DNA of 64,000 nucleotides from an uncultured Chloroflexia bacterium (GCA_963835655.1 CAWIGJ010000003.1:868372-932371), one strand, 5' to 3'. Counted from the first letter of the stretch, positions 3,352 through 61,505 are shown. Made by a program: numbers and translations. The notes: generated from the sequence alone by a model not told the origin.

Positions 3352-3960
3352 CTAGAATCGCGCGAACGACGTGCCTTGCCAGAGGATAACGGCGATAGCC
3401 GCTCCGGAAATGAAAGGGGCGTAGGGGATCGGGTCCTTACGGCTTCTGAGGCCCGTCGCGAGCAGCACAACCGCAACAACGCCGCCGGCAAGGGCCATCA
3501 GGAATAGGCTGTCGCCGACAAGCGGCCAGCCCAAAGCTAGTCCAACGAACACAGACAGTTTGACATCGCCAAGACCCATTCCGCCGCGTGAAACGACCAG
3601 CACGATAAGCATGAAGCCGGCTGACAACGCTCCACCAATGAGAGCCTCACGCAGGTCACCATGAGGCATGAATGCGGCTGCCAGAAAGGCGAAAAGAGCT
3701 GCTGGATAGGTGACGACGTTCGGCACGCGGAAAGACATAAGGTCCGTTGCTGCACAGGTGACGAGGACGGCAATGTACACCGCGACGACGGCCGTCTCGC
3801 CTGCGGTTCGGTAGCGCATTCCCGCGCCGGCAACGAGCCCGAGCGCGACAACCACGAAGACACGTGTCTGCCACGACGTTGATCGCAGGTGCTCGAGGAG
3901 GCGTCGTCCAGCGCCGAGATTTGTGAGCATGTTGAGGCGGCGTCCGGAATCAGCGGCCAT
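3352..3960 (-). CDS. Prepilin peptidase, A24 family
   Basis: TD...RVPN, GMGLGDVKL and IPYAPFI motifs with multiple TM segments. An alternative start at 3930 is possible. Confidence 0.85.
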   Translation of the reverse strand: MAADSGRRLNMLTNLGAGRRLLEHLRSTSWQTRVFVVVALGLVAGAGMRYRTAGETAVVAVYIAVLVTCAATDLMSFRVPNVVTYPAALFAFLAAAFMPHGDLREALIGGALSAGFMLIVLVVSRGGMGLGDVKLSVFVGLALGWPLVGDSLFLMALAGGVVAVVLLATGLRSRKDPIPYAPFISGAAIAVILWQGTSFARF

Positions 3961-4090
3961 AGATCATCCTTCCGTCTCTATAGTTTCGGCCCTTTGAGGG
4001 TAATCCTGCTATTAGGCGAATCCCCCATTCCGCTACTAGAGAAAGGCGACGAACCTCTCCCCACGGAACAACGTGTACTCGCGCTCCCTG

Positions 4091-4123
4091 CTTTGTGGAC
4101 GAAGCGGTGACTCGGGAGTACAC
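4091..4123 (+). promoter_or_regulatory. Putative sigma70-type promoter of the first acyl-CoA ligase
   Basis: (TTG)TGGACG-N17-TACACT; the same architecture recurs upstream of the paralog. Confidence 0.4.
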
Positions 4124-4162
4124 TGGCGCTGCTCAGCCGAGAAGTGGGCAAAGGAGGCAACC

Positions 4163-33021: not shown

Positions 33022-33190
33022 CCAGTCACCTCCTGACATCTGCTGATGATAGCGCACACACTAAAGATCAAGCAACAAATTGGCGTGGCTAGACTCCGCA
33101 CACATCCCCTAACCACTTGCAGATGATTGCGCCAACATGCTAGACTGCCTCATCAAGGAATCGGCACAACGGCTACGAAAGGGGGACGCC

Positions 33191-34801
33191 ATGTTTTACC
33201 AGACGAGGGTCTCTCGTCGAGGTTTTCTTGCCGGAGCTGCTGCTGCTGGAGGGGCGGCTGGCCTTGTTCTCATCGGCTGTGGCGGAAAGAGCGAGAATGC
33301 CGGACTAATCACTCCGACCGCCGCGGCAGGCGAGCCGAAGAAGGGTGGCACGATCAGACTCAGGAACAACGCTGCCATCCTCAGCCTTGACCCCAATATG
33401 ACTGAAGGGGTCTCCTGGGCCCCCTACTTCTACAGTTACGTGGTTCAACCGACCGACTGGCATGCCCCTGATTACACAATTGGCGATCTTGCGGAATCCT
33501 GGGAGACGCCCGACGACAACCATTGGATCTTCCACCTGCGAAGCGACGTTAATTTCCAGAACGTCGCACCTGCGAACGGGCGGCCTCTGGTCGCGCAAGA
33601 TATCGTCAAGAGCATCGATCGCTACCGGTCAACGCCGAATGCCGGACTCGCCTGGACCCAGTGGACTGAAAGGTACGAAGCGACCGATGAACACACGTTC
33701 ACGGAGATAACGAAACAGCCCTACGGATACTTCTTGTATGACCTGGGCAGCCCCGCCACGGCAATAATGGCGACGGAGGCAATTGATCAGTTCGGTGACC
33801 TGAAGACGCACGTCGCGGGCAGCGGCCCTTACACGCTCCAGTCGTACGACCCAAACACGTCCCTGGGGGTGGTGCGCAATCCCACCTATTACCAGGACTA
33901 CCCTTACGTGGACGGCGTCAGCATCAAGGTCTACACCGACGATTCGGCCGCCCAAGCGGCGTTTCGGGCGGGCCAGATCGATGCCTACGATGCAGCCACC
34001 AAGCCCGCGGCGGACAACGTAAGCGGCGTGAGCGGCGTGACAGTTCAGAAGTACCTGAATCGCCAGTACACCGTGTTCATGATGAACGCCGTTCAGGAGC
34101 CAAGGTTCAAGGACGAGCGAATTCGTGAAGCCATAGACCTTGCCCTTGACCGCAAACAGATGATCGACAAGCTATGTTTTGGCAATGCTGAACTGGCCGG
34201 CCCGATACCGCCCATCTGGCCGGCCGCCCTTCCGCCCGAGGAGATCGACGCCGCGTACACGAGAGACGTGGCCAAGGCGAAACAGCTTCTGTCCGCAGCT
34301 GGTGCTTCTGACCTGGCGTTCGATCTGACGTTCGGGACCTACGCAGACCATCCAGACCGCGCCGCGATTATCCAAGCCAACCTGGCGGAGGCTGGCATCA
34401 CGGCCAACCTCAAACCCGCCGATGTCGGCACCTGGCTGAGTAACTTGGAGAGTAATAACTTCGTTAGTACGACATTCCAGCACCTATCCTACCTATCCGA
34501 CTACATTCCGATAAACTGGCACCACAGCCACGGCTGGGGCCATCTCGATACCACGTATACCGGAGTTGATGATCCGCAGGTTGACGCGATGATCGATCAG
34601 ATCAATGGGACGATCGACGACCAGACACGAATCAAGCTAGAGCAGGATACCCAACGGCTCATTCTGCAGCGTCACGGCCCGACGCTCACACTGTATCAGC
34701 CTTACAACTACTGGGCCGCTTACGACTACATCAAGGGCTACAAGCCGACGTCGTTCGGCTTCGGGCTGTTCAATTACGGTTACTGGATCGACAAAGGATA
34801 G
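33191..34801 (+). CDS. ABC transporter substrate-binding protein, family 5, Tat lipoprotein (paralog 1)
   Basis: SRRGFL Tat motif, IGC lipobox, GDLAESWE.PD, GSGPY, D.R.R.A..LA.DR and YWIDKG end. Confidence 0.92.
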   Translation: MFYQTRVSRRGFLAGAAAAGGAAGLVLIGCGGKSENAGLITPTAAAGEPKKGGTIRLRNNAAILSLDPNMTEGVSWAPYFYSYVVQPTDWHAPDYTIGDLAESWETPDDNHWIFHLRSDVNFQNVAPANGRPLVAQDIVKSIDRYRSTPNAGLAWTQWTERYEATDEHTFTEITKQPYGYFLYDLGSPATAIMATEAIDQFGDLKTHVAGSGPYTLQSYDPNTSLGVVRNPTYYQDYPYVDGVSIKVYTDDSAAQAAFRAGQIDAYDAATKPAADNVSGVSGVTVQKYLNRQYTVFMMNAVQEPRFKDERIREAIDLALDRKQMIDKLCFGNAELAGPIPPIWPAALPPEEIDAAYTRDVAKAKQLLSAAGASDLAFDLTFGTYADHPDRAAIIQANLAEAGITANLKPADVGTWLSNLESNNFVSTTFQHLSYLSDYIPINWHHSHGWGHLDTTYTGVDDPQVDAMIDQINGTIDDQTRIKLEQDTQRLILQRHGPTLTLYQPYNYWAAYDYIKGYKPTSFGFGLFNYGYWIDKG

Positions 34802-39076: not shown

Positions 39077-39207
39077 AACACGCAACCTAGCCGCCTTGGC
39101 GAAGATTGCCGCCTTTCCTGATCCCAAGTGTCATCGAGAGTAGCATGAAGGCGAACCCGACCAGCCACGGATCACAGAATCCAAAGGAACGTTTAGGCGA
39201 CGCGACG

Positions 39208-40338
39208 ATGTCAGTGACGCACGAGCGTCAATGCGCCAAGACCATCGAGCGTTGGGAGTCCTTCTGGTCGTTGGAGGACATCGGAAGGCCCCTGTGGGTG
39301 TTTCCGGCCGCGTCGACCAACTTTGCTGTCTATGCCCGCACAATGTCGTTGAAACAGTTGTTCCGAGAGAAGGAGCTCCAGCTCACGACCGAGCTCGCAA
39401 CCCTCAAGTGGCGTGATCAGATGGAAATCGACGACGACTTTGTGCCGCAGTTGCAGCCTCAAGGAGGCGTCACTGTCTTCGCCTCCGCCTTCGGCTGTCA
39501 AGTTGAGTACTTTGAGCATACGCTGCCCTGGGCGCACCCGGTTATCACGAAGGATGATCCGCCGGAGAAGGTGTACGACCTGAAGCCGCCAGCGGTAACT
39601 GATGGGCAGCTTGGTGCGATGCTTGAATTCACCGACTACTTCGTTGCCGAAACAGGCGGCCGCTACCCGATTGCCCTAACTGACACGCAGGGGCCCTTGG
39701 ACACGTCTTACCTTGTCTGGGAGCCGAGCGCCTTCATGCTGGCGATGTACACCAATCCCAAGGAAGTGCACCACTTAATGCGCCTAGTCACCGACCTGAT
39801 TATCAAGTACGTGAAGGAGCAAAGGGCTCGTTCGCCCGAGTTCATGCCCTGTCACCATCCGCCTCTCTGGCTGCCAGATGGGCGCGGAATCGCAATAAGC
39901 GACGACGGGTTGGCCGTAATAAGCGCAAAGCTGTACGAGGAGTTCTGTCTTCCGTATGTGAATGAGCTCTCTGATGAGTTCGGCGGGATACTCATCCACT
40001 CCTGCGGCAAGTTCGTCCATCAACTCGACAATCTCGGGAAGGTGAACAATTTGCGAGGCCTGAATTTTGGAGCGACCGAGACACCTTTCGAAGCGATCTG
40101 GGAGCGCTTCAATGACAAGACGGCCCTGATCCCTCACCTCGGGCTGAATAACGTGGGCGGCCAGATTCACTTCGAGAACAACGAAGAGTTCATGGGTAGC
40201 CTACTCAGAACGAGAACCCACAATCGCGGGCTCTGCATTATCGTCTCGCCAGCAGAAGGCGAGCTAACGTCATCACAGCCCGATCCCCTGAAGACATTCT
40301 TCGAGCGCACACGGCAGATGCTGGTGCGTTTCAGCTGA
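39208..40338 (+). CDS. Uroporphyrinogen decarboxylase-like / MtaA-CmuA family protein
   Basis: TDTQGPLD, MLAMY..P..VH.L, ISDD and IHSCG motifs. Confidence 0.75.
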   Translation: MSVTHERQCAKTIERWESFWSLEDIGRPLWVFPAASTNFAVYARTMSLKQLFREKELQLTTELATLKWRDQMEIDDDFVPQLQPQGGVTVFASAFGCQVEYFEHTLPWAHPVITKDDPPEKVYDLKPPAVTDGQLGAMLEFTDYFVAETGGRYPIALTDTQGPLDTSYLVWEPSAFMLAMYTNPKEVHHLMRLVTDLIIKYVKEQRARSPEFMPCHHPPLWLPDGRGIAISDDGLAVISAKLYEEFCLPYVNELSDEFGGILIHSCGKFVHQLDNLGKVNNLRGLNFGATETPFEAIWERFNDKTALIPHLGLNNVGGQIHFENNEEFMGSLLRTRTHNRGLCIIVSPAEGELTSSQPDPLKTFFERTRQMLVRFS

Positions 40339-40757: not shown

Positions 40758-41930
40758 GTGGAACGCGATCAGTTTACTCCGAGCAAAGAAGACAGGTTTA
40801 CCTTTGGCCTCTGGACGGTTGGCAATACGGGCCGTGACACGTGGGGCGCAGAGGTCCGTGCTGACCTCCCTCCGCAACATATCTTGGAGCGATTGAGCGC
40901 CCTGGGGGCGTATGGCGTTTGCTTCCATGACAACGATCTCGTTCCTTTTCACGCCACTCTGAAGGAGCGCGATCGGATCGTTCGGGAATTCCGAAAGGCT
41001 CTGGTTGATTCGGGCATGAAGCTCACAATGGCGACGACGAACCTCGCGTTTCATCCAATCTTCAGGGACGGCGCTTTCACTGCCAATGACACCCGAGTTC
41101 GCGCGTTTGCTCTCCAGAAGGCCATGCGCGGGCTGGATCTAGCTGCGGAGCTGGACGCTCACATCTATGTCTTCTGGGGAGGCCGAGAAGGCGTCGAGGT
41201 CGAGGCGGCCAAAGACCCGAGAGAGGCGATCAAGCGCTATCGGGAGGCTATGAACTTCCTCTGTGAGTACGCTCTCGATCAGAAGTACGACATGCGCTTC
41301 GCTCTTGAGGCGAAGCCCAATGAGCCGCGCGGCGACATCTTCCTTTCTACGACCGGCCACATGCTTCACTTCATCGAAACCCTAGACCATCCTGAAATGG
41401 TCGGCGTCAACCCCGAGGTTGCGCATGAACAGATGGCCGGTCTGAACTTCGTTCACGTTGTCGCTCAAGCGCTGGAGGCGGGCAAGCTATTCCACATCGA
41501 CCTCAATGACCAGAAAGGGCCGCGCTACGACCAGGACCTGCGTTTTGCTTCAGAAAACCTCAAATCGTCATTCTTCCTCGTGAAGCTGCTCGAGGACTCG
41601 CATTACGAAGGCCCAAAGCACTTCGATGCTCACGCGTACCGCACAGAGGACGAGAACGGGGTTTGGGACTTCGCTCTCGGTTGCATGAGAAGCTACAAAA
41701 TCCTGCAGACCAAGGCGAAGCGCTTCAACGAAGACAAGGAAATACAGGCTCTGCTGTCTGAACTGCAGCGTCCGCACGAAGACGTGACCGAGCTACTCGG
41801 ACCTTATTCACCCGAGAAGGCTAGCCGGATCAAGGCTACGAGTTTCGACGTTGACGGGATCGCCCGCCAGGGGCTCCGTTACGAACGGCTCGACCAGCTC
41901 GTGACGGAGATCCTGTTGGGAGCGCGCTAG
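40758..41930 (+). CDS. xylA: Xylose isomerase (short class I type)
   Basis: FTFGLWTVG, FHDND, WGGREG, EAKPNEPRGD, VNPEVAHE, HIDLN.Q...YDQD and HFDAH motifs. Confidence 0.96.
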   Translation: MERDQFTPSKEDRFTFGLWTVGNTGRDTWGAEVRADLPPQHILERLSALGAYGVCFHDNDLVPFHATLKERDRIVREFRKALVDSGMKLTMATTNLAFHPIFRDGAFTANDTRVRAFALQKAMRGLDLAAELDAHIYVFWGGREGVEVEAAKDPREAIKRYREAMNFLCEYALDQKYDMRFALEAKPNEPRGDIFLSTTGHMLHFIETLDHPEMVGVNPEVAHEQMAGLNFVHVVAQALEAGKLFHIDLNDQKGPRYDQDLRFASENLKSSFFLVKLLEDSHYEGPKHFDAHAYRTEDENGVWDFALGCMRSYKILQTKAKRFNEDKEIQALLSELQRPHEDVTELLGPYSPEKASRIKATSFDVDGIARQGLRYERLDQLVTEILLGAR

Positions 41931-41943
41931 AAGGTACCCTCCT

Positions 41944-43518
41944 GTGAAAGCGGACGAGCCTCGACTCCTCGGCATAGACGTGGGGACCACGGCGCTGAAG
42001 GTCCTGGCGACAGGCCCGGCGGGCAAGGTCATCGCCGTCGCCAGCGCTGCCTATGAGCTGTCGCGTCCGCAAGCAGGTTGGAGCGAGCAGGACCCGGAGG
42101 ACTGGTGGAAGGCGTGCGTTCGAGCTATCCGGAACCTTGGGCGACAGGGCGTCTTTCGGTCGGGCCCGCCGGCAGCCATCGGGCTGACAGGTCAGATGCA
42201 TGGCTCCGTCTTCCTTGATGAAGCGGACAGCGTGCTCCGTCCGGCGATCCTCTGGAACGATCAGCGTACGGCGGCTGAGTGCGACGAGATCGAGAGCAGG
42301 CTTGACCTTGATCGCATTATTGCCCTCACGGCCAACCGTCCGCTCACCGGATTCACCGCGCCGAAGGTCCTCTGGCTGCGCAACCACGAGCCCGAACACT
42401 ACCGGCGCGTTCGCCATGTCCTCCTTCCGAAGGACTATCTCCGGCTGCGCCTCACCGGGGAGTGCGCGACCGATGTCTCTGACGCCTCCGGCACTCTTCT
42501 GTTCGACGTTCGCCGGCGCAAGTGGTCACAGAAAATGCTGGAGGCGCTGCGGATTGACTCCGGCTGGCTTCCTCCCGCTCTCGAATCTCCCGTAATTAGC
42601 GGGCAGCTAACCCGGCAAGCAGCGCGTGCCTTGGGCCTGGCACCAGGCATCCCGGTGGTCGCTGGTGCCGGAGACCAGGCAGCAGGGGCGGTCGGAAGCG
42701 GCGCCGTAGAGTCAGGGATAATCGACGTGAGCATCGGCACCTCGGGCGTCGTCTTCGCGCCCACGCAGGAGCCGCTTTCTGATCCCGAGGCCAGTCTTCA
42801 CTGCTTCTGCCACGCTTCGTCCGACCTCTGGCACGTTATGGGCGTTATGCTTTCTGCCGGCGGCTCCCTCCAATGGCTCAGCGATTTGTTTCGGAGCGTT
42901 TCTTCTAAGCGCCTCGCAATGGAACTTTGGCTAACCGGGCTGGCGCAGACTGTTCCGGCGGGTTCAGACGGCCTTCTCTTCCTGCCTTACCTGGCCGGTG
43001 AGCGCACACCCCATGCCGATCCTCTCGCCAGGGGCGCCTTCGTCGGTCTCACTGATCGACACGGACCGGCGGAAATGGCACGTGCCGTTATGGAAGGAGT
43101 GGCGTTCGGTCTGCGCGATTCGCTCGAATTGGTGCGGCAGCTTGGTGTTGCCCCGACCGAAATTCGAGTTGTCGGAGGCGGCGCTCGAAGTGTGTTGTGG
43201 CGACAAATCATTGCCGACGTCTTCGGCCTTCCGGTAGCGAGTCTGGCTATGGATGAGGGCGGTGCGTTCGGCGCAGCTTTGCTTGCGGGAGTCGGCGCGG
43301 GCCTTTTCCCCGATGTCCACGCGGCTTGCCGGATCGCCGTCAGAACCGGAGATCGGATCGAACCAGAGCGCAAGACGGCAGTCTTCTATGAAGCGTTGTA
43401 CGGCCAGTACCGCGCTCTCTATCCAGCGCTGAAGAAGCCGTTCCACGCCCTGCACGAACTGTCCACCCGTTCTAACACCCACATTGCAGACTCGGAGGAA
43501 TCAGATGCCTTTTGCTAA
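41944..43518 (+). CDS. xylB: Xylulokinase
   Basis: GIDVGTT, GLTGQMHG, LWNDQRT, GDQAAGA, IGTSGV, PYLAGERTP and GGGARS motifs. Confidence 0.95.
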   Translation: MKADEPRLLGIDVGTTALKVLATGPAGKVIAVASAAYELSRPQAGWSEQDPEDWWKACVRAIRNLGRQGVFRSGPPAAIGLTGQMHGSVFLDEADSVLRPAILWNDQRTAAECDEIESRLDLDRIIALTANRPLTGFTAPKVLWLRNHEPEHYRRVRHVLLPKDYLRLRLTGECATDVSDASGTLLFDVRRRKWSQKMLEALRIDSGWLPPALESPVISGQLTRQAARALGLAPGIPVVAGAGDQAAGAVGSGAVESGIIDVSIGTSGVVFAPTQEPLSDPEASLHCFCHASSDLWHVMGVMLSAGGSLQWLSDLFRSVSSKRLAMELWLTGLAQTVPAGSDGLLFLPYLAGERTPHADPLARGAFVGLTDRHGPAEMARAVMEGVAFGLRDSLELVRQLGVAPTEIRVVGGGARSVLWRQIIADVFGLPVASLAMDEGGAFGAALLAGVGAGLFPDVHAACRIAVRTGDRIEPERKTAVFYEALYGQYRALYPALKKPFHALHELSTRSNTHIADSEESDAFC

Positions 43519-44308
43519 GGTTAATGGAGTGAATCTCTACTACCAGCGACACGGCGAGACCGGCGAACAGCTGGTCTTCATTCATGGCTACGGACGGGAC
43601 ATGACCGACTGGGCATACCAGGTTGCGCAGTTCTCGCCTGATTTTCGCGTCCTTACTCTCGACCTCCGTGGACACGGGAGTTCGGAGGCGCCCGACCGCT
43701 CAGCCTACAGTGTCGAAGAGATGGCGCGAGACGTGCAGGCACTAGCGGGAGTTCTTGGCTTTGAGAGGTACCATCTCGTCGGACACTCCCTTGGCGGTTG
43801 TATTGTCCAGGAAGTCGCGCTCAGTGTTCCCGAGCGGCTGCTCTCCCTGACATTGGAAGACACGGGACCTCTGGGCGCCGTCCCAGACGACCTCGAAAGG
43901 CAGAAGTTCAACGCAATGCAGATCGAGTTGGCTCAGACGAAGGGCATGGCGGCGGTGGTCGATTTGTGCCACCAGTACGTCGGCCGTTTCGTCTTCCTAC
44001 AAGACATGCTGGGGACGGATTTCGACCGACTGGAGAGGATGCCCGTGGAAGCGCTCATCGGCGCCACGCTCGTGGGCCCAAAGTGGATCGGAACGATCGA
44101 CAGAGCCTTATCGATTGCCACGCCGACTCTGGTCATCTGTGGCGAACTCGACGCCGCTCCAATGGTCTTTGCATCGCAGTGGCTCGCCCAGACGATTCCA
44201 AATGCCAGGTTGGAAATGGTTCCCCGCGCCGGTCATTCGCCGCAAAGAGTGCAGACAGAACTATACAATAGGGCGCTGCGACGGCATTTGCAGGAGCACC
44301 ACAGCTAA
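43505..44308 (+). CDS. Alpha/beta fold hydrolase (enol-lactonase-like)
   Basis: FIHG, DLRGHG.S, GHSLGG, GELD and AGHSP motifs. Confidence 0.88.
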   Translation: MPFAKVNGVNLYYQRHGETGEQLVFIHGYGRDMTDWAYQVAQFSPDFRVLTLDLRGHGSSEAPDRSAYSVEEMARDVQALAGVLGFERYHLVGHSLGGCIVQEVALSVPERLLSLTLEDTGPLGAVPDDLERQKFNAMQIELAQTKGMAAVVDLCHQYVGRFVFLQDMLGTDFDRLERMPVEALIGATLVGPKWIGTIDRALSIATPTLVICGELDAAPMVFASQWLAQTIPNARLEMVPRAGHSPQRVQTELYNRALRRHLQEHHS

Positions 44309-44420
44309 GCCGCCGCAGGACAGGGACCCCCAACGGTTGTGATTTATAACTCTGTAGCCGGATGATGTAGCCCTGCATATTTGCGCCTGCCGAAATCAGC
44401 TGCCCAGGCGTTCATACACG

Positions 44421-46001
44421 CTACGTCGCCCGCCAGTGCTCGTCTCCACTTGCATCGATTATCCGATAGCCGACATCGAGCTGTTCCGCCAGCTCGACGA
44501 GATGCGGCGTGTAGTCGCCGAAGGTAAAGGCGAGATGATTGGAAGGCCACATCGCCGCCAGCGCCCGGTCTGAAAGCGATAGCTTCCCTCTCAACACCGG
44601 CCACGACACGTTGTAGCGCTCGTGCTCCGCCGGACCAACGTCCAAAGTCTCGACAACTGTGGCCGCCAGATAGTAGCGCATGTTCTCCCGCCCCAAGCGT
44701 GCGACCGTCACCTCCAACCCGCCAGGCGTTCGGCCTCTCACCGCAGCGCCACCGCCGGCATAAAATATCTCCTGTCCGAAGAATTCGGCGCGCAAGTCTT
44801 TGATATGACCCGCCTCCTCGGGTCGACCGTAGAAGTAAGTCGGGTGCTGCCCACAGTTCACGATTGCCAGCGTGCCCGCTTCGACGTCGCGGAAGTCGCC
44901 GAACGCCGCCGGCTGGCCAGAGAGGAGGTGCAGCATGAGCTGGGTAAGTGCAGTATCCATGTCATTCTCACAGGACGTTGGATAGATGCGCTGTTGTGGC
45001 GTGCCATCGGGGGCCACGTCATTTCCCAGGTAGCATGTGGCGACGCAGGCAGTGCACAGGTTGGCGCTGAGCTCATCCTGGCACTTGATACCCGCAAACG
45101 TGGCGCCGGTTTCTTCGATGATGTCGCGCGCAGCGTAGAACATAGCGACCTGTAGGACGAACTTTCCGATAGACGGGAGGCTTGCACGGCTGAAGTCGAA
45201 TTTGCCGGTTCTTTTTTTGTACTCGACGGCGGCGGCGACGCGGGCATCGAGTATCTCACAATCACTTTCGCCGGGACGGCCACTCCATTTCACCATCGCC
45301 CGAGCGCGCTCGACGATTTCGGACTGATCGCGATGGTCATAGCTCACCTTGAAGAGCTTCTGCCAGAGGTTTGGGTCCGCCGTCGCCGTCGGCATGCGCA
45401 GGGCCTCGCCGCCGAACTGAAGGTACTTCTGCTCGGGAAGTCGCGCGATTGCCGACGCGACGGTTTCGGCGGCGGACGCCCGGCGTTTGAAAAACCTTAG
45501 CTTGCTGAGCACGTCCTCGAGCGTCCACGAGTCCTCGTCGATACGACCGTAGGCGATGTGGAACGACTTGCCCATCGTCCTTAGGGCACCGGCAATCGCC
45601 ATCAGCGCGACGAGGCCGGGCACCTGAGTGTCCTTGTAAGCGAACAGCAGCAGCCGCGAATTGCCTCCTCCACCGCCGAGCAGCAGCCGCAGCGTTGACT
45701 CATAAACGTCGACGGCGTCGACAGAATCGCGTGGGAACGTCCAGGAACCCTGATTGAGAATGAGAGCGTCGGGCCGGGCATCCGCGATGCGCTTCGCCTG
45801 GCGCACGACAAGGTCATGGTTCCAGGCTATCTGATCCTCGCGCGCGAAGCCGTCCCCACCTCGAATGACCTCGACGCCCCGGGCGGTAAGCGCGTCAATG
45901 AGCAGCGCCTCGTGGTGTAGCATGAGGTCAAGGTTATCAGAGCGCACCCAGGCGCGATTGTCGTTTGGCGAGAAAACGCCGACACGAATACGCTCGTTCA
46001 T
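44421..46001 (-). CDS. L-fucose/D-arabinose isomerase-family protein
   Basis: W.FP, KCQDELS, CEND.D.ALT, NCG and GGAAV...PG.VTVARL motifs, consistent with the FucI/AraA superfamily. Confidence 0.75.
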   Translation of the reverse strand: MNERIRVGVFSPNDNRAWVRSDNLDLMLHHEALLIDALTARGVEVIRGGDGFAREDQIAWNHDLVVRQAKRIADARPDALILNQGSWTFPRDSVDAVDVYESTLRLLLGGGGGNSRLLLFAYKDTQVPGLVALMAIAGALRTMGKSFHIAYGRIDEDSWTLEDVLSKLRFFKRRASAAETVASAIARLPEQKYLQFGGEALRMPTATADPNLWQKLFKVSYDHRDQSEIVERARAMVKWSGRPGESDCEILDARVAAAVEYKKRTGKFDFSRASLPSIGKFVLQVAMFYAARDIIEETGATFAGIKCQDELSANLCTACVATCYLGNDVAPDGTPQQRIYPTSCENDMDTALTQLMLHLLSGQPAAFGDFRDVEAGTLAIVNCGQHPTYFYGRPEEAGHIKDLRAEFFGQEIFYAGGGAAVRGRTPGGLEVTVARLGRENMRYYLAATVVETLDVGPAEHERYNVSWPVLRGKLSLSDRALAAMWPSNHLAFTFGDYTPHLVELAEQLDVGYRIIDASGDEHWRAT

Positions 46002-46050
46002 CGCGGTCTTGCCTCCCTATGCTTACGCAACATGGGCCGTGTCTAGGTTG

Positions 46051-47139
46051 TTAGGGAACATCCGGGCGCGGCAAACGTTCGGCGGCAGGCGGTAGTTCCG
46101 GAAACAGGGCATGCGGCTCGGTCTGGTACCAGTACGCCGTGCTGGAGTAGTCATTACTAAGACTGTTTGCGTGTCCATGTTCGATCGTGACCCGGATCGA
46201 GTTCTCGAACATAACCGGGTCTTCAATGTGAAAGCGGTAGAGTGAGTTCTTGCCCCTCCACGGCCATTCTTCAGTGCCGCTGTAAACAGTGACACCGTAG
46301 TAGGGGGCGCAGAACTCGCGTCTCGGCGAGAACGCGGTGTTGAAGTAGTCCTCCGTGCCCGTGCCGTGCAGCGTCGGCGGCCAAACGTCGCCGTCGATGA
46401 AGATCATGTCGTCGCCTTCCCCGTACCAATCGTTCATTTGTCGCGAGAAGCAGTCAATATTGAGGTTGCAGCCGACGTAGTGGCCGCGGCCTTCGGCTTC
46501 GAGGATGACATAGTTGTCTTTGCCGTCAAGGTTCGGCGTCGACCATACATTCTTGCGCAGCTCGCTGAAATCGCCGGACGCGGGGTCATCGTCATACCGG
46601 CCTTTGCCCCAGCCCTGCGTTGGGTTCTCGCGCCGCCACTGCGCGTGGAAGCGCGCCAGGCCGTCATCGATGTGATCGTGCTCCTCATAATCGACGTAGT
46701 AATAGAAGATCATGCCCTGGTCCGACTCGTTGCCCACTTCGATGCGGCCGCGCGAAGCGAAAGGCATCGGGAAGAAGCAGTTGAATCCGCGTCCGTCCTG
46801 GGGACTCATGCTCAGGGGCAGCGACCAGAAGTCTTTTACAATGCCGTGGCCGATGCCGAAGAAGTCACCGATAGGAGCCTCAACGCAGGGACTCGAAGCG
46901 CCGTCCCAGTACATGCGCAGAACAGTGGTTCGGGCATAGAAAGGATTATCGCGCGTGGCCATTGTGCACCAGATGTGGCGGATGATGCCCGGCCCGGTAA
47001 TGTCGCAGAGAACCGCGCGCTCCTTCGGTAGCAGCAAGACGAAGTCGGCGTTGCCGCCCTTCCGGTCCCAACTCGATGCCCGTCGCCGGCGACCGTCGCG
47101 CAGACTCGCAAGGTTACTCAGAGACGTACCACCGATCAT
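46051..47139 (-). CDS. DUF2961 / glycoside hydrolase family 172 protein
   Basis: ASS.DR.GGN.D, GPG.I.HIW.T, LRMYWDG...P.VE.P.GDFFG, EGDD.IFIDG, GTGTEDYF and YRFH..DPV.F...IRVTIEHG motifs. Confidence 0.92.
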   Translation of the reverse strand: MIGGTSLSNLASLRDGRRRRASSWDRKGGNADFVLLLPKERAVLCDITGPGIIRHIWCTMATRDNPFYARTTVLRMYWDGASSPCVEAPIGDFFGIGHGIVKDFWSLPLSMSPQDGRGFNCFFPMPFASRGRIEVGNESDQGMIFYYYVDYEEHDHIDDGLARFHAQWRRENPTQGWGKGRYDDDPASGDFSELRKNVWSTPNLDGKDNYVILEAEGRGHYVGCNLNIDCFSRQMNDWYGEGDDMIFIDGDVWPPTLHGTGTEDYFNTAFSPRREFCAPYYGVTVYSGTEEWPWRGKNSLYRFHIEDPVMFENSIRVTIEHGHANSLSNDYSSTAYWYQTEPHALFPELPPAAERLPRPDVP

Positions 47140-48857
47140 TGTTCCTCCCGCGAAAGCGCAGCCAATCCCTCGTCACTGCGCGTCCGATGCCGAGTATTCA
47201 CGGCAACCGATGACGTTCTACCGTCGCTTTGCATTATCCGACGATAATCAAGCTGATGCTCGTACATTTGCAGGAACACCCGATGTTTGGCCTCAAGAAA
47301 AGGCTTGCGGCTGCGGTTCGGCCTTACTATCTCAGCCTTTGGGCTCATGGAATCGACAGCCGTGAGTACCGAAGGATGAACACCTGCCGCGACCGCAGCG
47401 AGCATCGCTGAACCCAGCAGCACCGGTTCAGTGTCCGGCGCAAGGTAGACGTCGCAGCCGGTGACGTCGGCGTGCTCTTGCATGAGTAGCGGATTCTTGC
47501 TTCCGCCGCCGCAGGCGTGCAGCCGTCGAATGGCGTAGCCGGCGCTGTTCATCTCGTCGATGATGTGACGCGTGCCATGTGCGATCGCCTCCAACGTCGC
47601 GAGATAGAGAAGCGCGAGGTTTCGCGGGGACGAATCCAGGGTTAGACCGCTGATCATGCCGCGGGCGTGGCTGTCGGCGCGCGGCGAGCGGTTACCGTGG
47701 AAATAGGGCAGCACGTGCAGGTCTGTGAGTGCCTTCTCCTGCTCGGCCACGCTCATGGTGGCCAGATCGCTGTTCAGGACTTCATAGACGGTGCGGCCGG
47801 AAGCAGCAGCGGCCTTGGCGATGGCCCGGTATGCAGCGTGGTTTTCGATGACATGGTCGATGAGCGAACCAGTGGCGCTCTGGCCACCCTCGTTCAGCCA
47901 CATCCCAGGTACCATCGCGCCGTAGTACGGGCCCCAGACGCCGTCAATGAACCGCGCTTCCGATGACACAGCCATGTGGCAGGAGGATGTCCCGGCTATC
48001 AGGGCGAGCCGGTCGTCTAGCCGGCCCAGGCCAGCGCCAGGCTCATTCGCGCGGTGCATTCCGAGAACACCGATGCCGCCGGCGTGGGCGTCGATGATGC
48101 CCGTGGCGACCGCGATGCCTGCTTTCAGACCAAGCTCGGCAGCGGCAGCCTGTGTTAGGGAGCCCGCGCGAGAGCCGATCGGTGCAACCCGCGTGCCGGC
48201 CCGTCCGCCTTGGAACAGATCTTCGAGGCCGATCTGCTTGAAGAATGTGAGATCCCAGGCGCCGGGCTCCCCCTGATGCCCGAGATACGTCCACTTGCAG
48301 ACGACGGTGCACAGGCTGCGTACGTCGTCGCCGCAGGCTTGGAAGACAAGGTAGTCGGCCAAGTCAAGGAACTTGCCAGTATTTGCCCAGGTTTCCGGCA
48401 GGTTCTCCTTAATCCATTTCAGCTTCGGCGGCTCTTGTTCCGGTGAGAGCTTGCCGCCGACATAGCGAAGGACAGCGTGGTCGGTGGCATTGATGCGGTC
48501 CGCCTGGTCCTGGGCGCGGTGGTCCATCCAGACGATGATGTTGTGAGACGGGTCGCCGGTCGGAGAAATAGTGATTGGGCGGTTATCACGGTCGAGGGCG
48601 ACAAGCGAGCAGGTTGCGTCGAAGCCGATCCCGGCGATACGCGAAGGCTTCACCGCCGCGGCACGGATCGCTTTGCGCACGGACTGCGCCGTCGCCTCCC
48701 AGATCTGCCTGGACGACTGCTCGACGCAATCTTCCTGCGGGTGGAACACGTCGATGTCGGTAGATTCGGCGGCGAGTACCCGGCCGTCGGACGCAAAGAC
48801 GCCGGCCCTTACACCTGCCGTACCGACATCAACGCTGGCAAGAAAGCGCTCGTCCGT
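47136..48857 (-). CDS. FGGY-family pentulose (D-ribulose-type) kinase; apparent ACG start
   Basis: GFDATCSLV, WMDHRA, IIDAHAGG, GTSSCHM, EGGQSATG and FHGNRSP motifs. The N-terminal VDVGT motif lies upstream of GTG 48749, with only ACG 48857 as a plausible start. Confidence 0.85.
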   Translation of the reverse strand, partial: TDERFLASVDVGTAGVRAGVFASDGRVLAAESTDIDVFHPQEDCVEQSSRQIWEATAQSVRKAIRAAAVKPSRIAGIGFDATCSLVALDRDNRPITISPTGDPSHNIIVWMDHRAQDQADRINATDHAVLRYVGGKLSPEQEPPKLKWIKENLPETWANTGKFLDLADYLVFQACGDDVRSLCTVVCKWTYLGHQGEPGAWDLTFFKQIGLEDLFQGGRAGTRVAPIGSRAGSLTQAAAAELGLKAGIAVATGIIDAHAGGIGVLGMHRANEPGAGLGRLDDRLALIAGTSSCHMAVSSEARFIDGVWGPYYGAMVPGMWLNEGGQSATGSLIDHVIENHAAYRAIAKAAAASGRTVYEVLNSDLATMSVAEQEKALTDLHVLPYFHGNRSPRADSHARGMISGLTLDSSPRNLALLYLATLEAIAHGTRHIIDEMNSAGYAIRRLHACGGGSKNPLLMQEHADVTGCDVYLAPDTEPVLLGSAMLAAVAAGVHPSVLTAVDSMSPKAEIVRPNRSRKPFLEAKHRVFLQMYEHQLDYRRIMQSDGRTSSVAVNTRHRTRSDEGLAALSREEQ

Positions 48858-48860
48858 AGT

Positions 48861-50459
48861 CTAGCCTTTGTCTATCCAGTAGTCGTACTTGAATAGCCCG
48901 AAGCCGTTCGCAGTTGGTGTGTATCCCTTGATAAAGTCCATCGCGACCCAGTAAGCGTATGGCTGGTAAAGGGTGAGCGTCGGTCCGTGGCGCTTCAAGA
49001 TCAGCCTTTGCACATCGAGCCACGTATTGATCCGCTGCTGTTCATCGAGGATCGTTTGGGCATTCTCAATCATCGAGTCGACCTGCGGGTCGTCGACGCC
49101 GTAGTTGAACGCTTCGCTGTTGCTGAATCCGCGGCTTTGATGGAACGCCAGGGAGAAGTCAGAACCGAGATAGGGCAACTGCTGCATCAAAGTAGCCTCA
49201 AAGCTGCCGCTGTAGTACTCGGATATCCATGTGCCCTGATCTCGCTCGGCTAGGTTCGCTGTGATGCCAGCCTCCGCCAGGTTGCTCTTGATTAATGAGG
49301 CGAGGTCTGCCTGGTCCGGCGAGGAAACAAATGTGAGCGTAAAGCTCAACCCGTCGGCGCCCGCAGCAGATAGAAGACTCTTTGCCTTTGACACGTCTCT
49401 CGTGTAGGCCGCTTCAATCTCTTCCTTGGGTAGAGCCTCGTTCCCTCCTGAAGGGGGTATAGGGCCCGCCAGTTCACCGTCGCCGAAGCATATCTTCTCG
49501 ATCATCTGATTACGGTCAAGGGCCAAGTCAACCGCCTCGCGGACCCGCTCGTCCTTGAATGCCGCCAACTTTGAGCCATTGAGTATGAAGGTCATGTATA
49601 TACTTTGCAGGTATTTCTGAGTGCTGGCGCCGCTGACGTCCTTGACGGCGTCGGCGCTCGGCTTGTTTGTCGCGTTATAGACGTCGATCTGACCGCTGCG
49701 GAAGGCTGCCTGAACGGTGGCGTCATCAGTGATCACCTTAATGCTCTGCCCGTCCACGTAAGGATAATCTTGGTAATAGGTAGGGTTGCGCACCATCGAC
49801 ACCCCATCGTTGGGTCGATAGTCGGTCAGCATGAACGGCCCGCTGCCGACAACCTGAGTGCTAAGGCTATCCGCCGCTTCCACGGGAACGATGGCTGCTA
49901 TCGGGCTACCGAGCGTCAGCAGCACGGCCCAGCGTGGGTCCCTAGTCGTCAAGCTGAACGTATAATCGTCCGGAGCCGAGTAACCGATTATCCAGTCGGT
50001 CCAGGCCTGGGGAACGCCCGGCATACTCTTCATCCGGTCATAGCTCTTGACGATGTCGCCGGCCACAAGGGCACGGCCATTGGCTGGGGCGACATTCTGA
50101 AAGCGGACATCGTTGCGGATCTTGAATGTCCAAGTGACATCGTCGGGCATCTCCCACGATTCTGCCAGGTCACCGACGTTGCCCTTCCAGTCAGTCGCGT
50201 GGATCACATAACTGTAGAAGTCGGCGGCAGTTAGAAGGCCCTCCGCATTGTGAGGGTCTAAGCTAAGGATGGACGATGGGTAAGAAGTGCGGAGGGTGCC
50301 GCCGCGCACCGGTTGACCCGTCGCGCCTGTCGGGCCGGGAGTAAGCAACCCTCCCTGCTTGCTTCCGCCGCAGCCGATGAGAACGAACCCTGCGGCCCCT
50401 AAGGCTGTCACGGCCCCTCCCATGAAGCGCCGGCGCGATACCCTGGTTCTATACAACAT
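48861..50459 (-). CDS. Family-5 ABC substrate-binding Tat lipoprotein (paralog 2)
   Basis: SRRRFM Tat motif, IGC lipobox, GDLAESWE and YWIDKG end. Confidence 0.92.
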   Translation of the reverse strand: MLYRTRVSRRRFMGGAVTALGAAGFVLIGCGGSKQGGLLTPGPTGATGQPVRGGTLRTSYPSSILSLDPHNAEGLLTAADFYSYVIHATDWKGNVGDLAESWEMPDDVTWTFKIRNDVRFQNVAPANGRALVAGDIVKSYDRMKSMPGVPQAWTDWIIGYSAPDDYTFSLTTRDPRWAVLLTLGSPIAAIVPVEAADSLSTQVVGSGPFMLTDYRPNDGVSMVRNPTYYQDYPYVDGQSIKVITDDATVQAAFRSGQIDVYNATNKPSADAVKDVSGASTQKYLQSIYMTFILNGSKLAAFKDERVREAVDLALDRNQMIEKICFGDGELAGPIPPSGGNEALPKEEIEAAYTRDVSKAKSLLSAAGADGLSFTLTFVSSPDQADLASLIKSNLAEAGITANLAERDQGTWISEYYSGSFEATLMQQLPYLGSDFSLAFHQSRGFSNSEAFNYGVDDPQVDSMIENAQTILDEQQRINTWLDVQRLILKRHGPTLTLYQPYAYWVAMDFIKGYTPTANGFGLFKYDYWIDKG

Positions 50460-50900
50460 CGTTAACCCCCCTTCGTCTGCAACTAGACTCCCGCCTCTTT
50501 CGCTGGTTCATGTTGAGGTGTGCCTGTAGATGCAGCCGAATTCGCAAATTCGCGTGTCTCTGAGCGAATCGCAGAGTAGCAGCCGGACCAGAGGCTTGTC
50601 AAATGGGTGGAGATTGAATCTGTGGAGAGTTGCGGTTCTTGCTTGGTTACCCCCAAAGGTTGTTATTTCGAAATCGCCCCATTGGGGTCTGGCATTCGAT
50701 ACCACATCATCGCATACTGTTGACCGAAACCGGAAGATTGTGAGAGATTCAGGGCCGCTCAACTTTGGCGTCGTTCAGTGCGTGTAGCAGCCGTCATCTT
50801 GTCCGTGCCGCGGGAATCTGGAGGATGAACAGGTATTTCGCACACATCCCGCAACCTCATCGGCAAATCAAAACAGGAGAAGCGACAAACGGAGGAGGAC

Positions 50901-52514
50901 ATGCTTTACCAAAAGAGGATCTCACGTCGCGGTTTTCTGGCCGGAGCGGCGGCCACGGGAGGCGCGGCCGGGCTTGTTCTCATCGGCTGCGGCGGCAAGA
51001 GCGAGAATGCCGGATTGATCGCTCCGACGGGTGCGGCAGGCCAGCCGAAGAAGGGCGGCACCATTCACTTCTACACTCTAGCACCTGTTCTGAGCCTTGA
51101 ACCCGCCTCGGTTCAGGGATCCGCTTGGGCTAACTTACCGTACAGCTATGTCGTTCAGCCGACCGACTGGCACGCCCCTGACTACATAATTGGCGATCTC
51201 GCGCTGTCATGGGAGACGCCTGATGACGTGACGTGGATCTTCCACCTTCGCGACGATGCTAAATTCCCAGATATCGCGCCCACAAATGGTAGGCCGCTGG
51301 TTGCCGACGACATAGTGAAGAGCATCGATCGGCTACGCACGAAACCGGGCGTCCCCCCCGGATGGGACGAATACACGGAAAAATACGAGGCGGTGGACGC
51401 GCGAACGTGGAAGGAGACCACCAAGAAGCCATATGGTTACTTCCTGTACGACCTGGGGGGCGGCGCGACCGGCATCGTGGCTACGGACCTCGCGGAGAGT
51501 TACGGTGATGATCTGTCGAGCAAGGTGGCCGGCAGCGGGCCTTACACTGTGAAATCGTACAGTCAAAATGAAGGGTTGGAGGTGGTGCGCAATCCGCTCT
51601 ACTACCACGACTACCCGTATGTCGATGGGTTCAATTTCAAGGTCTTCACAGACGATGCGGCTGCGCAGACGGCTTTCCGGGGCAGGCAGATCGATGCCTA
51701 CAGTCCGCCCAGCAAGCCGACGGCGGACAACTTGAGGAGCGTTAGCGGCGCGAGCATCACGAGGTTCCTGGACCAGGAATGGAGCGTGTTCGTGGTGAAT
51801 GCCGTGAAGTTCCCTCAGTTCAAGGACGAACGGATACGAGAGGCAATCGATCTGTCATTGAACCGGCAGCAGATGATCGACAAGCTGCTCTTCGGAGATG
51901 CCGAGCTTGCCGGCGCGGTGCCGCCGTACTGGCCGGCCGCGCTCCCGAAGGAGGAGATCGAAGCAGCCTATCAGCGTGACGTGGAGAAGGCGAAACAGTT
52001 GCTTTCGGCGGCCAACGCATCGGATTTGACGTTCGATCTCTCCTTCGCCAGCTACCAGGACAACCCGGACCGCGCGGCGATCATCCAGAGCAATCTAGCC
52101 GATGCTGGAATCACCGTAAACCTGAAAACTGCAGATGTCGGCACTTGGCTGGATGCTCTACTGAAGAACGACTACGTAAGCACGACATACACTCAACTGC
52201 GGTACGGAAACGACTGGGTGGCGGTCAACTGGCAGCACAGCTGTGGTTATACCCACTCGGAAGCCAACTACACCGGGGTTGACGATCCTGAGGTCGACGC
52301 CCTAATAGACCAGATCAACGGGACGATCGATGACCAGGAGAGGACAAAGCTGGAGCAGGATATGCAGCGGAAGGTCCTTGCCAGGCACGGGCCAATGTTT
52401 ACCCTGTACCAGCCGTATGACTATTGGGCGGCCTACGACTACGTCAAGGGTTACACGCCGACATCGAACGGCTTTGGCCTGTACAAGTACGACTACTGGA
52501 TCGACAAAGGCTAA
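50901..52514 (+). CDS. Family-5 ABC substrate-binding Tat lipoprotein (paralog 3)
   Basis: SRRGFL Tat motif and YWIDKG end; closely colinear with paralog 1. Confidence 0.92.
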   Translation: MLYQKRISRRGFLAGAAATGGAAGLVLIGCGGKSENAGLIAPTGAAGQPKKGGTIHFYTLAPVLSLEPASVQGSAWANLPYSYVVQPTDWHAPDYIIGDLALSWETPDDVTWIFHLRDDAKFPDIAPTNGRPLVADDIVKSIDRLRTKPGVPPGWDEYTEKYEAVDARTWKETTKKPYGYFLYDLGGGATGIVATDLAESYGDDLSSKVAGSGPYTVKSYSQNEGLEVVRNPLYYHDYPYVDGFNFKVFTDDAAAQTAFRGRQIDAYSPPSKPTADNLRSVSGASITRFLDQEWSVFVVNAVKFPQFKDERIREAIDLSLNRQQMIDKLLFGDAELAGAVPPYWPAALPKEEIEAAYQRDVEKAKQLLSAANASDLTFDLSFASYQDNPDRAAIIQSNLADAGITVNLKTADVGTWLDALLKNDYVSTTYTQLRYGNDWVAVNWQHSCGYTHSEANYTGVDDPEVDALIDQINGTIDDQERTKLEQDMQRKVLARHGPMFTLYQPYDYWAAYDYVKGYTPTSNGFGLYKYDYWIDKG

Positions 52515-60054: not shown

Positions 60055-60218
60055 CCCTCGGGTCAGGGCGAAGTGGCCCGTAGCGTATGCGGCTCTCCCC
60101 CCTTCGCTGCATAGCGGTTCCCTCAGAGACCAATTTCCTGCTCCCAATCGCCGATCGGTGCACCACAGGCGCCTCTCGTCTATGATCTCCTGCATCGAGG
60201 CAGCGAAAGGATACTCCC

Positions 60219-61505
60219 ACGGCAGGACAATCGAGCTTAGCTCGCCCTAGGGTCTTCTACGGCTGGTGGGTGGTCGCCGCGCTGTGCACCGTGATGTTCC
60301 TCAGCACGGGCTGCACCCTTTACGCAATGGGCGTCTTCGTCCGCCCGCTTGAGGATCAATTCGGCTGGTCGCGCGGACAAGTGTCCGCTGCGCTTTCGCT
60401 ACCCCCCCTGATTGGCGGTCTCTTCTCGCCTGCCGCCGCCGCGCTGTTGGACCGGCTGGGCGCCCGCTTCTTGATCGGCGTCGGCGGCTTCATGATGGGG
60501 CTTTGCGTGGGGCTGCTTGGCCTCACGTCGTCTCTCGCATACTTCTGCCTAATGCTCATGCTGATGGCGGCCTGGCAGTCGGGGACAATGTTCCCCGCCG
60601 GCCCCATCATCTCCTACTGGTTCGACCGCAGGCGGGGGCAGGCGCTCGGCTTCGCGACGGCGGGCATCGGCCTGGGCGGCCTTGTGTTCGCGCCGCTAGT
60701 TGCCTTGCTGATCGACGCTTTTGGCTGGCGGGCGACCTTCTACATGGAAGGCGGCATCATCATCGCGGTGATGGCGCCGCTGGCCCTCTTCGTCATCCGG
60801 CAGCGTCCCAAGGACATGGGGCTGCTGCCCGACGGCGACGCGACCGCTGCGGACAGTCTCGGGGGAGAGGGGATTGCCGGCGGGGGCTGGTCGCTGGCAG
60901 AGGCGGTGCGGACGCCGACATTCTTTGTTGTGACGGCATCATTCAGTCTGGCATCCGCGACCCTCAGCGCCGTGCTCATCCACGTCGTGCCGTTCCTGGA
61001 GGACCAGGGGTTCTCCAGCGTTAAGGCCGGGCTGATCCTGGGTTGCGTCTCGGGCACCGGCATCGTGGGGAAGATAGGGTCGGGCTACCTGGTGGATAGG
61101 ATGTCACCGCGACTGGTTACAGCCGGCGTGTTCCTGATGCAGGCGGTTGGACTGGCGATATTGCTGCAAAGCGGCGGCAGCCTTGCTGGGATGGTCATCT
61201 TCGTTCTGGTCTTTGGCTACGCGATGGGCTCGGTGGTGACGCTCCAGCCGATTATGGCGGTCTACTACTTCGGAGTGGTTTCGATAGCGATGATCCTGGG
61301 AGTAATGGTCGCGGTGACAAGCGCCTTCAACGCGCTGGGGCCGATGATCGCTGGCTTCGTTTACGATAGGACGGGAGCATACAGCACTATCTTCGTGGTT
61401 TATGTCGTGCTCGATTGCTTGGCCGCAGTGCTCGTGTATTTCCTGGGCGGTCAGCCGTCGCACCTTCCTACAATTGAACGAGCGCTGCCCGAGGGGACAG
61501 CCTAA
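60219..61505 (+). CDS. MFS transporter; apparent ACG start
   Basis: 12-TM MFS (LLDRLGAR, YWFDRRRGQALG, G.L.DR). The N-terminal RVFYGWW lies upstream of GTG 60270; AAAGGA-N7-ACG at 60219. Confidence 0.85.
   Translation, partial: TAGQSSLARPRVFYGWWVVAALCTVMFLSTGCTLYAMGVFVRPLEDQFGWSRGQVSAALSLPPLIGGLFSPAAAALLDRLGARFLIGVGGFMMGLCVGLLGLTSSLAYFCLMLMLMAAWQSGTMFPAGPIISYWFDRRRGQALGFATAGIGLGGLVFAPLVALLIDAFGWRATFYMEGGIIIAVMAPLALFVIRQRPKDMGLLPDGDATAADSLGGEGIAGGGWSLAEAVRTPTFFVVTASFSLASATLSAVLIHVVPFLEDQGFSSVKAGLILGCVSGTGIVGKIGSGYLVDRMSPRLVTAGVFLMQAVGLAILLQSGGSLAGMVIFVLVFGYAMGSVVTLQPIMAVYYFGVVSIAMILGVMVAVTSAFNALGPMIAGFVYDRTGAYSTIFVVYVVLDCLAAVLVYFLGGQPSHLPTIERALPEGTA

Follow-up and report, generated by a model that had tools for sequence, protein, structure and literature searches.

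Cell walls of the mycobacterial type have D-arabinofuranose (D-Araf) as a signature sugar, for which degrading enzymes became known only in 2021-2023. A D-arabinan locus of Microbacterium arabinogalactanolyticum encodes an ATP-binding cassette (ABC) importer, a cytoplasmic glycoside hydrolase of family 172 (GH172), an isomerase and a kinase, together leading to D-ribulose-5-phosphate (Shimokawa et al. 2023, PMC10509167); the family of the isomerase is not given in the supplements of that paper. When Dysgonomonas gadei grows on D-arabinan, a predicted fucose isomerase of PUL42 ranks as the most abundant such protein (Al-Jourani et al. 2023, PMC10115798). D-Arabinose is used by Escherichia coli B via FucI and the FGGY D-ribulokinase DarK (PMC12307932), and the GH172 enzyme αFFase1 of Bifidobacterium dentium, a difructose dianhydride I synthase/hydrolase, is encoded adjoining an ABC importer (PMC8605356). 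Here we describe a related cluster in a 64,000-nucleotide (nt) stretch of DNA (the window) from an uncultured Chloroflexia bacterium (GCA_963835655.1 CAWIGJ010000003.1:868372-932371). Four minus-strand open reading frames (ORFs) at 44421-50459 encode a family-5 solute-binding protein (SBP1), an FGGY pentulose kinase, a GH172 and a fucose-isomerase-superfamily protein. Judged from their sequences, they probably constitute a minimal cytoplasmic route from α-D-arabinofuranosides to D-ribulose-5-phosphate.

This route had been put forward in an earlier note on this DNA, and our analysis supported it, as each enzyme assignment held and the synteny recurs elsewhere. In the proposed sequence of events, SBP1, a lipoprotein exported by the twin-arginine translocation (Tat) system, would capture a small D-Araf oligosaccharide or glycoside outside the cell and pass it to an ABC permease presumably encoded elsewhere. 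Inside the cell, the signal-less GH172 would act as a retaining enzyme with two catalytic glutamates, E263 (nucleophile) and E241 (acid/base), to release the terminal α-D-Araf. The isomerase would then convert D-arabinose to D-ribulose at a metal site made up of E345, D369 and H489, and the kinase, a TIGR01315 FGGY protein apparently translated from a non-canonical start (an ACG, or reinitiation after the SBP1 stop), would phosphorylate D-ribulose to D-ribulose-5-phosphate. The product could enter the pentose phosphate pathway via ribulose-phosphate 3-epimerase (Rpe), for which the genome has two gene copies. The source genome is a 2.49-Mb assembly of five contigs with 92.5% completeness, and its relatives are labelled as Dehalococcoidia or Chloroflexia metagenome-assembled genomes.

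The GH172 gene (46051-47139, minus strand; 362 amino acids (aa)) matches PF11175 (DUF2961) with 287.7 bits against a cut-off of 27. In the PDB the protein matched 4kq7 (BACUNI_00161; E = 2.5e-85), 7v1v (αFFase1; 9e-78), 8ah3 (D. gadei Dg79; 1.6e-75) and 8ic8 (5e-41), the last being a solved exo-α-D-arabinofuranosidase that we take to be ExoMA1. In the alignment, the catalytic pair E263 and E241 is intact and residues W238, D264 and Y151 of the -1 subsite are conserved. W238/E241/E263/D264/Y151 correspond to W267/E270/E291/D292/Y187' of αFFase1, and W238/E241/E263 to W253/E256/E277 of Dg79; the catalytic residues are E270/E291 in the former (PMC8605356) and E256/E277 in the latter (bioRxiv 10.64898/2026.08.13.744632). 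Nearby, F270 occupies the position of αFFase1 W298, a conservative change common to the three closest orthologues, and S271 that of G299, a small residue that makes space in αFFase1 for the extra hydroxymethyl group of fructofuranose. At this position the Araf-active Dg79 and BACUNI_00161 have Cys, which would clash with fructofuranose, as argued by Kashima et al. (PMC8605356). The GH172 sequence leaves no space for a signal peptide. With its catalytic glutamates and -1 subsite intact, the family assignment made in the earlier note stands, and the protein is predicted to be a cytoplasmic exo-α-D-arabinofuranosidase.

The isomerase gene (44421-46001, minus strand; 526 aa) has Pfam matches to Fucose_iso_C (44.5 bits) and Fucose_iso_N1 (32.1 bits), both just above the cut-offs, and the Pfam scan gave no match to PF07882 (N2). 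FucI proteins of the PRK10991 type are about 590 aa long and have N1, N2 and C domains; against this NCBIfam FucI equivalog the window protein reached 26 bits, compared with a cut-off of 775. Given the low PRK10991 score, the length, the missing N2 and the 15-18% identity to FucIs, we consider the isomerase to belong to a separate clade and not to be a FucI orthologue. The clade is small, with about 4 full-length clusters at 50% identity among 1.84 billion representatives, and all homologues come from uncultured organisms and are annotated at best as "L-fucose isomerase-like".

A search of the PDB with the single isomerase sequence returned no match, whereas a profile of 24 clade members reached 3a9r, 6k1f and 1fui at about 1e-8. 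An AlphaFold2 model of the protein (predicted local distance difference test (pLDDT) 88.9; predicted template modelling score (pTM) 0.91) was compared with known structures using Foldseek, which placed 3a9r, the D-arabinose isomerase (D-AI) of B. pallidus, first (1e-26), followed by the L-fucose isomerases 1fui, 4c20 and 6k1f (about 1e-25) and then by L-arabinose isomerases, all at 12-18% identity. E345 (CEND), D369 (GDFR) and H489 (NH) align with the TEND, ADVR and ANH motifs of FucI/D-AI and are invariant in the 24 clade members, and the E-to-D spacing is 24 residues in the isomerase as in FucI/D-AI. They are the counterparts of E337, D361 and H528, the catalytic/Mn residues of E. coli FucI. 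By its model, the protein has the fold and the catalytic/metal triad of the FucI superfamily, so the fucose-isomerase-like label given previously was confirmed, and conversion of D-arabinose into D-ribulose is the predicted reaction.

The kinase frame is open from 47136 to 48860 (minus strand), or covers 47136-48749 when counted from its first canonical start. Over the full open frame it scored 618 bits against TIGR01315 (cut-off 408.7), with the alignment beginning at profile position 4, and it also matches FGGY_N/C. It stayed below the NCBIfam equivalog cut-offs for L-ribulokinase, xylulokinase and fuculokinase (PRK04123, 296 vs 428 bits; TIGR01234, 238 vs 583; XylB, 163 vs 380), and matched PDB 3gg4/3l0q with an E value of 4e-178. 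Characterised members of the pentulose kinase subfamily are D-ribulokinases, such as RbtK (PMC3245297). Human FGGY and yeast Ydr109c are further examples. The scores thus support a pentulose kinase of the D-ribulokinase-type subfamily, as proposed before on this DNA, with D-ribulose as the probable substrate.

The four genes are co-oriented, in line with the earlier description, as is apparent from the ORF listing of the window. The ATGA overlap between the GH172 start ATG and the kinase stop was found exactly at 47139-47136, and the 49-nt spacing between the GH172 and the isomerase at 46002-46050, both as noted previously. Strong GGAGG ribosome-binding sites precede the GH172 and the isomerase, the one for the GH172 lying 5 nt before its ATG. 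A scan of 44200-51000 for promoters and terminators gave matches no more numerous than in shuffled sequence.

The start of the kinase gene is abnormal. Behind the SBP1 stop TAG (48863-48861), the same frame runs on as ACT ACG GAC GAG CGC TTT CTT GCC AGC GTT GAT GTC GGT (TTDERFLASVDVGT), and no ATG, GTG, TTG, CTG or ATT occurs in the kinase frame before the GTG at 48749. This GTG lies 37 codons in, and a start there would create a 111-nt gap and lose the DVGT (DxGT) phosphate-binding motif; kinase orthologues elsewhere have an ATG start 8-11 codons before that motif. A candidate start is the ACG at 48857-48855, 7 nt after an AAAGG and 3 nt after the in-frame SBP1 stop. The 3-nt gap between SBP1 and the kinase given in the earlier note therefore holds only if the kinase starts at this ACG, and does not hold from the first canonical start.

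The junction (48855-48863, TAG-ACT-ACG) is letter-identical in related populations (~97% identity; three metagenome runs from two studies). The junction-spanning contigs show four differences in the adjoining kinase stretch, all of them synonymous third-position changes and two of them inside the ATP motif, and across the N-terminal half of the kinase 28 of the 36 population differences are synonymous and 8 non-synonymous, which argues that this stretch is coding and under purifying selection. A sequencing or assembly error at the start was ruled out by the presence of the same letters in contigs from three runs, and a read-through fusion of SBP1 and kinase by topology, since an exported lipoprotein would then be fused to a kinase of the cytoplasm. 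On a related metagenome contig (L078, Ga0315281_10001518), the kinase, GH172 and isomerase genes occur in the same order as in the window (80, 87 and 83% amino-acid identity, respectively), and the kinase has a normal 33-nt spacer and an ATG start. On this contig the SBP gene (3940-4143) is a 68-codon in-frame remnant, in which the Tat/lipoprotein signal peptide is fused to the last 17 residues. Because this relative has the spacer and the ATG, the SBP1-kinase arrangement of the window looks derived. Most likely, the kinase is still translated, from the ACG or by reinitiation after the SBP1 stop, and its level is then probably low or coupled to SBP1 translation. Elsewhere in the window, the frame of a major facilitator superfamily (MFS) transporter gene has, near 60219 (within 60183-60272), a second candidate start of the AAAGGA-N7-ACG type, and its conserved RVFYGWW motif is likewise not preceded by a canonical start.

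Among the 30 closest genomes, the GH172 was found in 11, the isomerase in 5 and a kinase orthologue in 1, and none contained the four-gene cluster, so conservation was sought in metagenome contigs. The resulting synteny set comprised 106 loci encoding the isomerase clade, from 26 genomes and 80 metagenome contigs, with the denominators below counting loci with enough flanking sequence. Of 79 such loci, 20 have a same-strand GH172 gene as the immediate upstream neighbour of the isomerase. The immediate downstream neighbour is an XylB-like FGGY kinase in 21 of 78, chiefly Bathyarchaeia with a compact GH172-isomerase-kinase trio, and an RbtK-like kinase comes immediately upstream in 10 of 69. Overall, roughly half of the loci have an FGGY kinase next to the isomerase, many of them from Bathyarchaeia. 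Where both flanks were visible (n = 50), 16 loci had both a GH172 and a kinase. Given that two different FGGY clades fill the same slot, the product of the isomerase is likely a ketose needing phosphorylation. The synteny survey also supported the functional link between the cluster genes that the earlier note had assumed, since the GH172-isomerase-FGGY kinase association recurs in Bacteria and Archaea and two published D-arabinan loci are alike (PMC10509167, PMC10115798). These gene neighbourhoods indicate a strong GH172-isomerase-kinase link across phyla.

SBP1 (48861-50459, minus strand; 532 aa; SBP_bac_5, 216 bits) carries a twin-arginine signal and a lipobox (SRRRFMGG...LIGCGGS) and is likely the extracytoplasmic receptor for the imported glycoside, as read from these motifs. 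It has no close characterised structure in the PDB, where the best match had an E value of 9e-24. In the window's own family, the isomerase is often followed by an SBP1 homologue with 50-54% identity, which is the next gene in 8 of 78 loci. On the other side of a divergent spacer (50460-50900), in which a repeat search gave weak repeats only, lies SBP2 (50901-52514, plus strand; 537 aa; SBP_bac_5, 203 bits), a paralogue with 51% identity to SBP1 over the full length and the same signal peptide and C-terminus. The divergently transcribed SBP2 may be part of the same uptake function. A third family-5 binding protein gene is located at 33137-34801, and no ABC permease or ATPase gene was found in the window beside the three family-5 genes.

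Several observations count against the D-Araf route. Within the locus, transport is represented by binding proteins only, and since all 19 ABC permease genes of the genome (BPD_transp_1) are >130 kb from the cluster, SBP1, SBP2 and the binding protein at 33137 are orphans. GH116 (PF04685) is absent from the genome in a search that gave matches in control genomes. The kinase lacks a canonical start: its phosphate motif VDVGT is present in frame with only an ACG preceding it, a codon at which translation initiates very poorly in model bacteria. The earlier note had also proposed to place the GH172 among characterised members; a maximum-likelihood tree could be built, but the GH172 did not group with any one characterised enzyme, the deep branches being unresolved and long-branch-affected. 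Regarding the genomic context, 20 of the 50 isomerase loci with both flanks visible lack every partner gene. Three close relatives (G006, G010 and G011) carry GH172 orthologues (80-85% identity) beside unrelated genes and have no isomerase and no kinase, so the GH172 is not obligatorily coupled to the route. In the region 5848-16269 of contig L064, the neighbours of the isomerase (80% identity) are a putative glycosidase of GHL6 type, weakly similar to α-L-fucosidases, together with an SBP1 homologue and a glycyl-radical enzyme, a context that suggests an L-fucose-type use of the isomerase clade and fits L-fucose better. GH183 (DUF4185) gave no match in the window's genome, in a search in which the control genomes were silent too.

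The isomerase and kinase could instead form a module for a free monosaccharide (L-fucose, D-arabinose or another rare sugar delivered via the SBP), with the GH172 unrelated or acting on a different glycoside. The same family repeatedly shows a family-5 SBP paired with the isomerase where GH172 and kinase are lacking (the 8 of 78 loci above), kinase-isomerase pairs without GH172 are found in several phyla, GH172 orthologues stand alone in close relatives, and FucI-type enzymes usually take both L-fucose and D-arabinose, 3a9r and 1fui being the top fold matches. We nevertheless regard such a module as quite unlikely, as the frequency of GH172 upstream of the isomerase is far above chance for a family present at most twice per genome, the window GH172 lies between the kinase and the isomerase with the ATGA overlap, and a pentulose kinase without an aldolase fits formation of D-ribulose-5-phosphate, not the L-fuculose-1-phosphate route. 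An α-D-fructofuranoside or difructose dianhydride I route like that of B. dentium αFFase1, which the earlier note gave as its alternative, is very unlikely. It would agree with αFFase1 being the second-best PDB match of the GH172, with the activity of αFFase1 on p-nitrophenyl-α-D-Araf as well (PMC8605356), and with the failure of the GH172 tree to separate clades. However, the genome has no GH32 to split inulobiose, while control genomes gave GH32 matches, and a fructose route would have no use for an aldose-ketose isomerase and a pentulose kinase. The alternative is further weakened by Ser271 at the position of Gly299, where Dg79 and BACUNI_00161 have Cys, and by the make-up of the B. dentium locus, which includes a GH32 but neither an isomerase nor a kinase (PMC8605356). 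An L-arabinose route (AraA/AraB/AraD) was ranked low, with the kinase below the AraB cut-offs and no class II aldolase/epimerase nearby; nor is any GH172 known to act on L-arabinosides.

The kinase start raises the question of decay: if the spacer and the ATG have been lost and the kinase is untranslated, the operon would be decaying or partly functional and the route incomplete, in which case the GH172 and the isomerase may still work and D-ribulose would need another kinase. Besides the missing start codons ahead of the DVGT motif, the 68-aa SBP remnant on L078 indicates that cluster members do decay, and in genome G017 a second kinase-isomerase copy (contig C5; L034 / L059 2465-5661) is disrupted by frameshifts and by stop codons within the frame, while contig C15 has an intact copy. 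We find decay of the window operon unlikely, though, given the junction letters kept across populations, the exclusively synonymous differences next to them, the excess of synonymous changes across the N-terminal half of the kinase, the AAAGG 7 nt before the ACG, and the second window gene with the same layout. The favoured reading thus remains the D-Araf route with a kinase that is translated in an unusual manner. A broader proposal, which we put forward tentatively and as somewhat doubtful in its entirety, is that the 520-aa isomerase clade is an unrecognised D-arabinose isomerase family, that the GH172-isomerase-FGGY kinase trio is a portable module for D-Araf recycling, and that the window kinase is translated from the ACG or by reinitiation.

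The cluster appears to lie in a pentose-catabolism neighbourhood, because xylA (Arthrobacter-type xylose isomerase, 544 bits) and xylB (xylulokinase, 573 bits) at 40758-43518 are convergent to it. Between xylA/xylB and the cluster sits an alpha/beta hydrolase gene (43484-44308). Proteins of the URO-D/MtaA-like type are encoded near sugar-utilisation genes in the window (39106-40338) and also on L064 (2509-3690), there beside the isomerase locus.

If the route is real, the trio would let uncultured sediment and soil lineages (Bathyarchaeia, Dehalococcoidia and some Actinomycetota) recycle D-Araf, the source of which could be Actinomycetota cell-wall necromass or other D-Araf glycans. The same catabolic logic would then operate in streamlined Chloroflexota of soil as well as in many Bathyarchaeia, where it takes the form of a compact three-gene module. 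This suggests that soils and anoxic sediments regularly offer D-arabinan fragments as a carbon source. The isomerase clade is a candidate for the missing D-arabinose isomerase of these lineages, and the start-less kinase may be a natural case of non-AUG initiation or termination-reinitiation in Chloroflexota. Most of what this analysis adds concerns the GH172-isomerase-kinase module shared across domains and the irregular start of the kinase, and all three enzymes are amenable to simple biochemical tests.

Compared with the D-arabinan locus of M. arabinogalactanolyticum, the window shares an ABC-type binding protein, a signal-less intracellular GH172, and a putative isomerase and kinase leading to D-ribulose-5-phosphate. 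It differs in that the SBP belongs to family 5 and not to family 8, the locus lacks permeases, and GH183 and GH116 were not detected (the GH183 controls being silent); moreover, the GH172 is distant from ExoMA1 (144 bits), the isomerase comes from an uncharacterised clade, and the lineage is Chloroflexota. As in PUL42 of D. gadei, where GH172s are encoded with a 'fucose isomerase' that D-arabinan strongly induces, the window combines a GH172 with a fucose-isomerase-like protein, and its GH172 resembles Dg79 with the same catalytic residues. PUL42 is, however, a Bacteroidota system of the SusC/D type with periplasmic GH172s and endo-arabinanases, whereas the window has one cytoplasmic GH172 and would depend on SBP-mediated uptake.

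The two final steps proposed here, a FucI-type isomerase yielding D-ribulose and an FGGY D-ribulokinase yielding D-ribulose-5-phosphate, parallel those of E. coli B (cited in PMC12307932); the window isomerase, however, is linked to a glycosidase and not to the fucose regulon. It is also about 65 residues shorter than FucI, to which it is 15-18% identical, and has no detectable N2 domain. With B. dentium αFFase1 (PMC8605356) the window enzyme has in common the GH172 family, the catalytic glutamates, the aromatic residues of the -1 subsite and the cytoplasmic location, in contrast to the Ser for Gly299, the genome without GH32 and the isomerase and pentulose kinase as neighbours. Our literature search found no paper linking GH172 to Chloroflexota or Bathyarchaeia, and the earlier note seems correct in stating that the route had not been seen described in this lineage. 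As a pathway it is already known, having been published for the Microbacterium and Dysgonomonas D-arabinan loci; what differs here is the lineage, the family-5 SBP, the lack of detectable endo-acting enzymes, the divergent isomerase clade and the start-less kinase.

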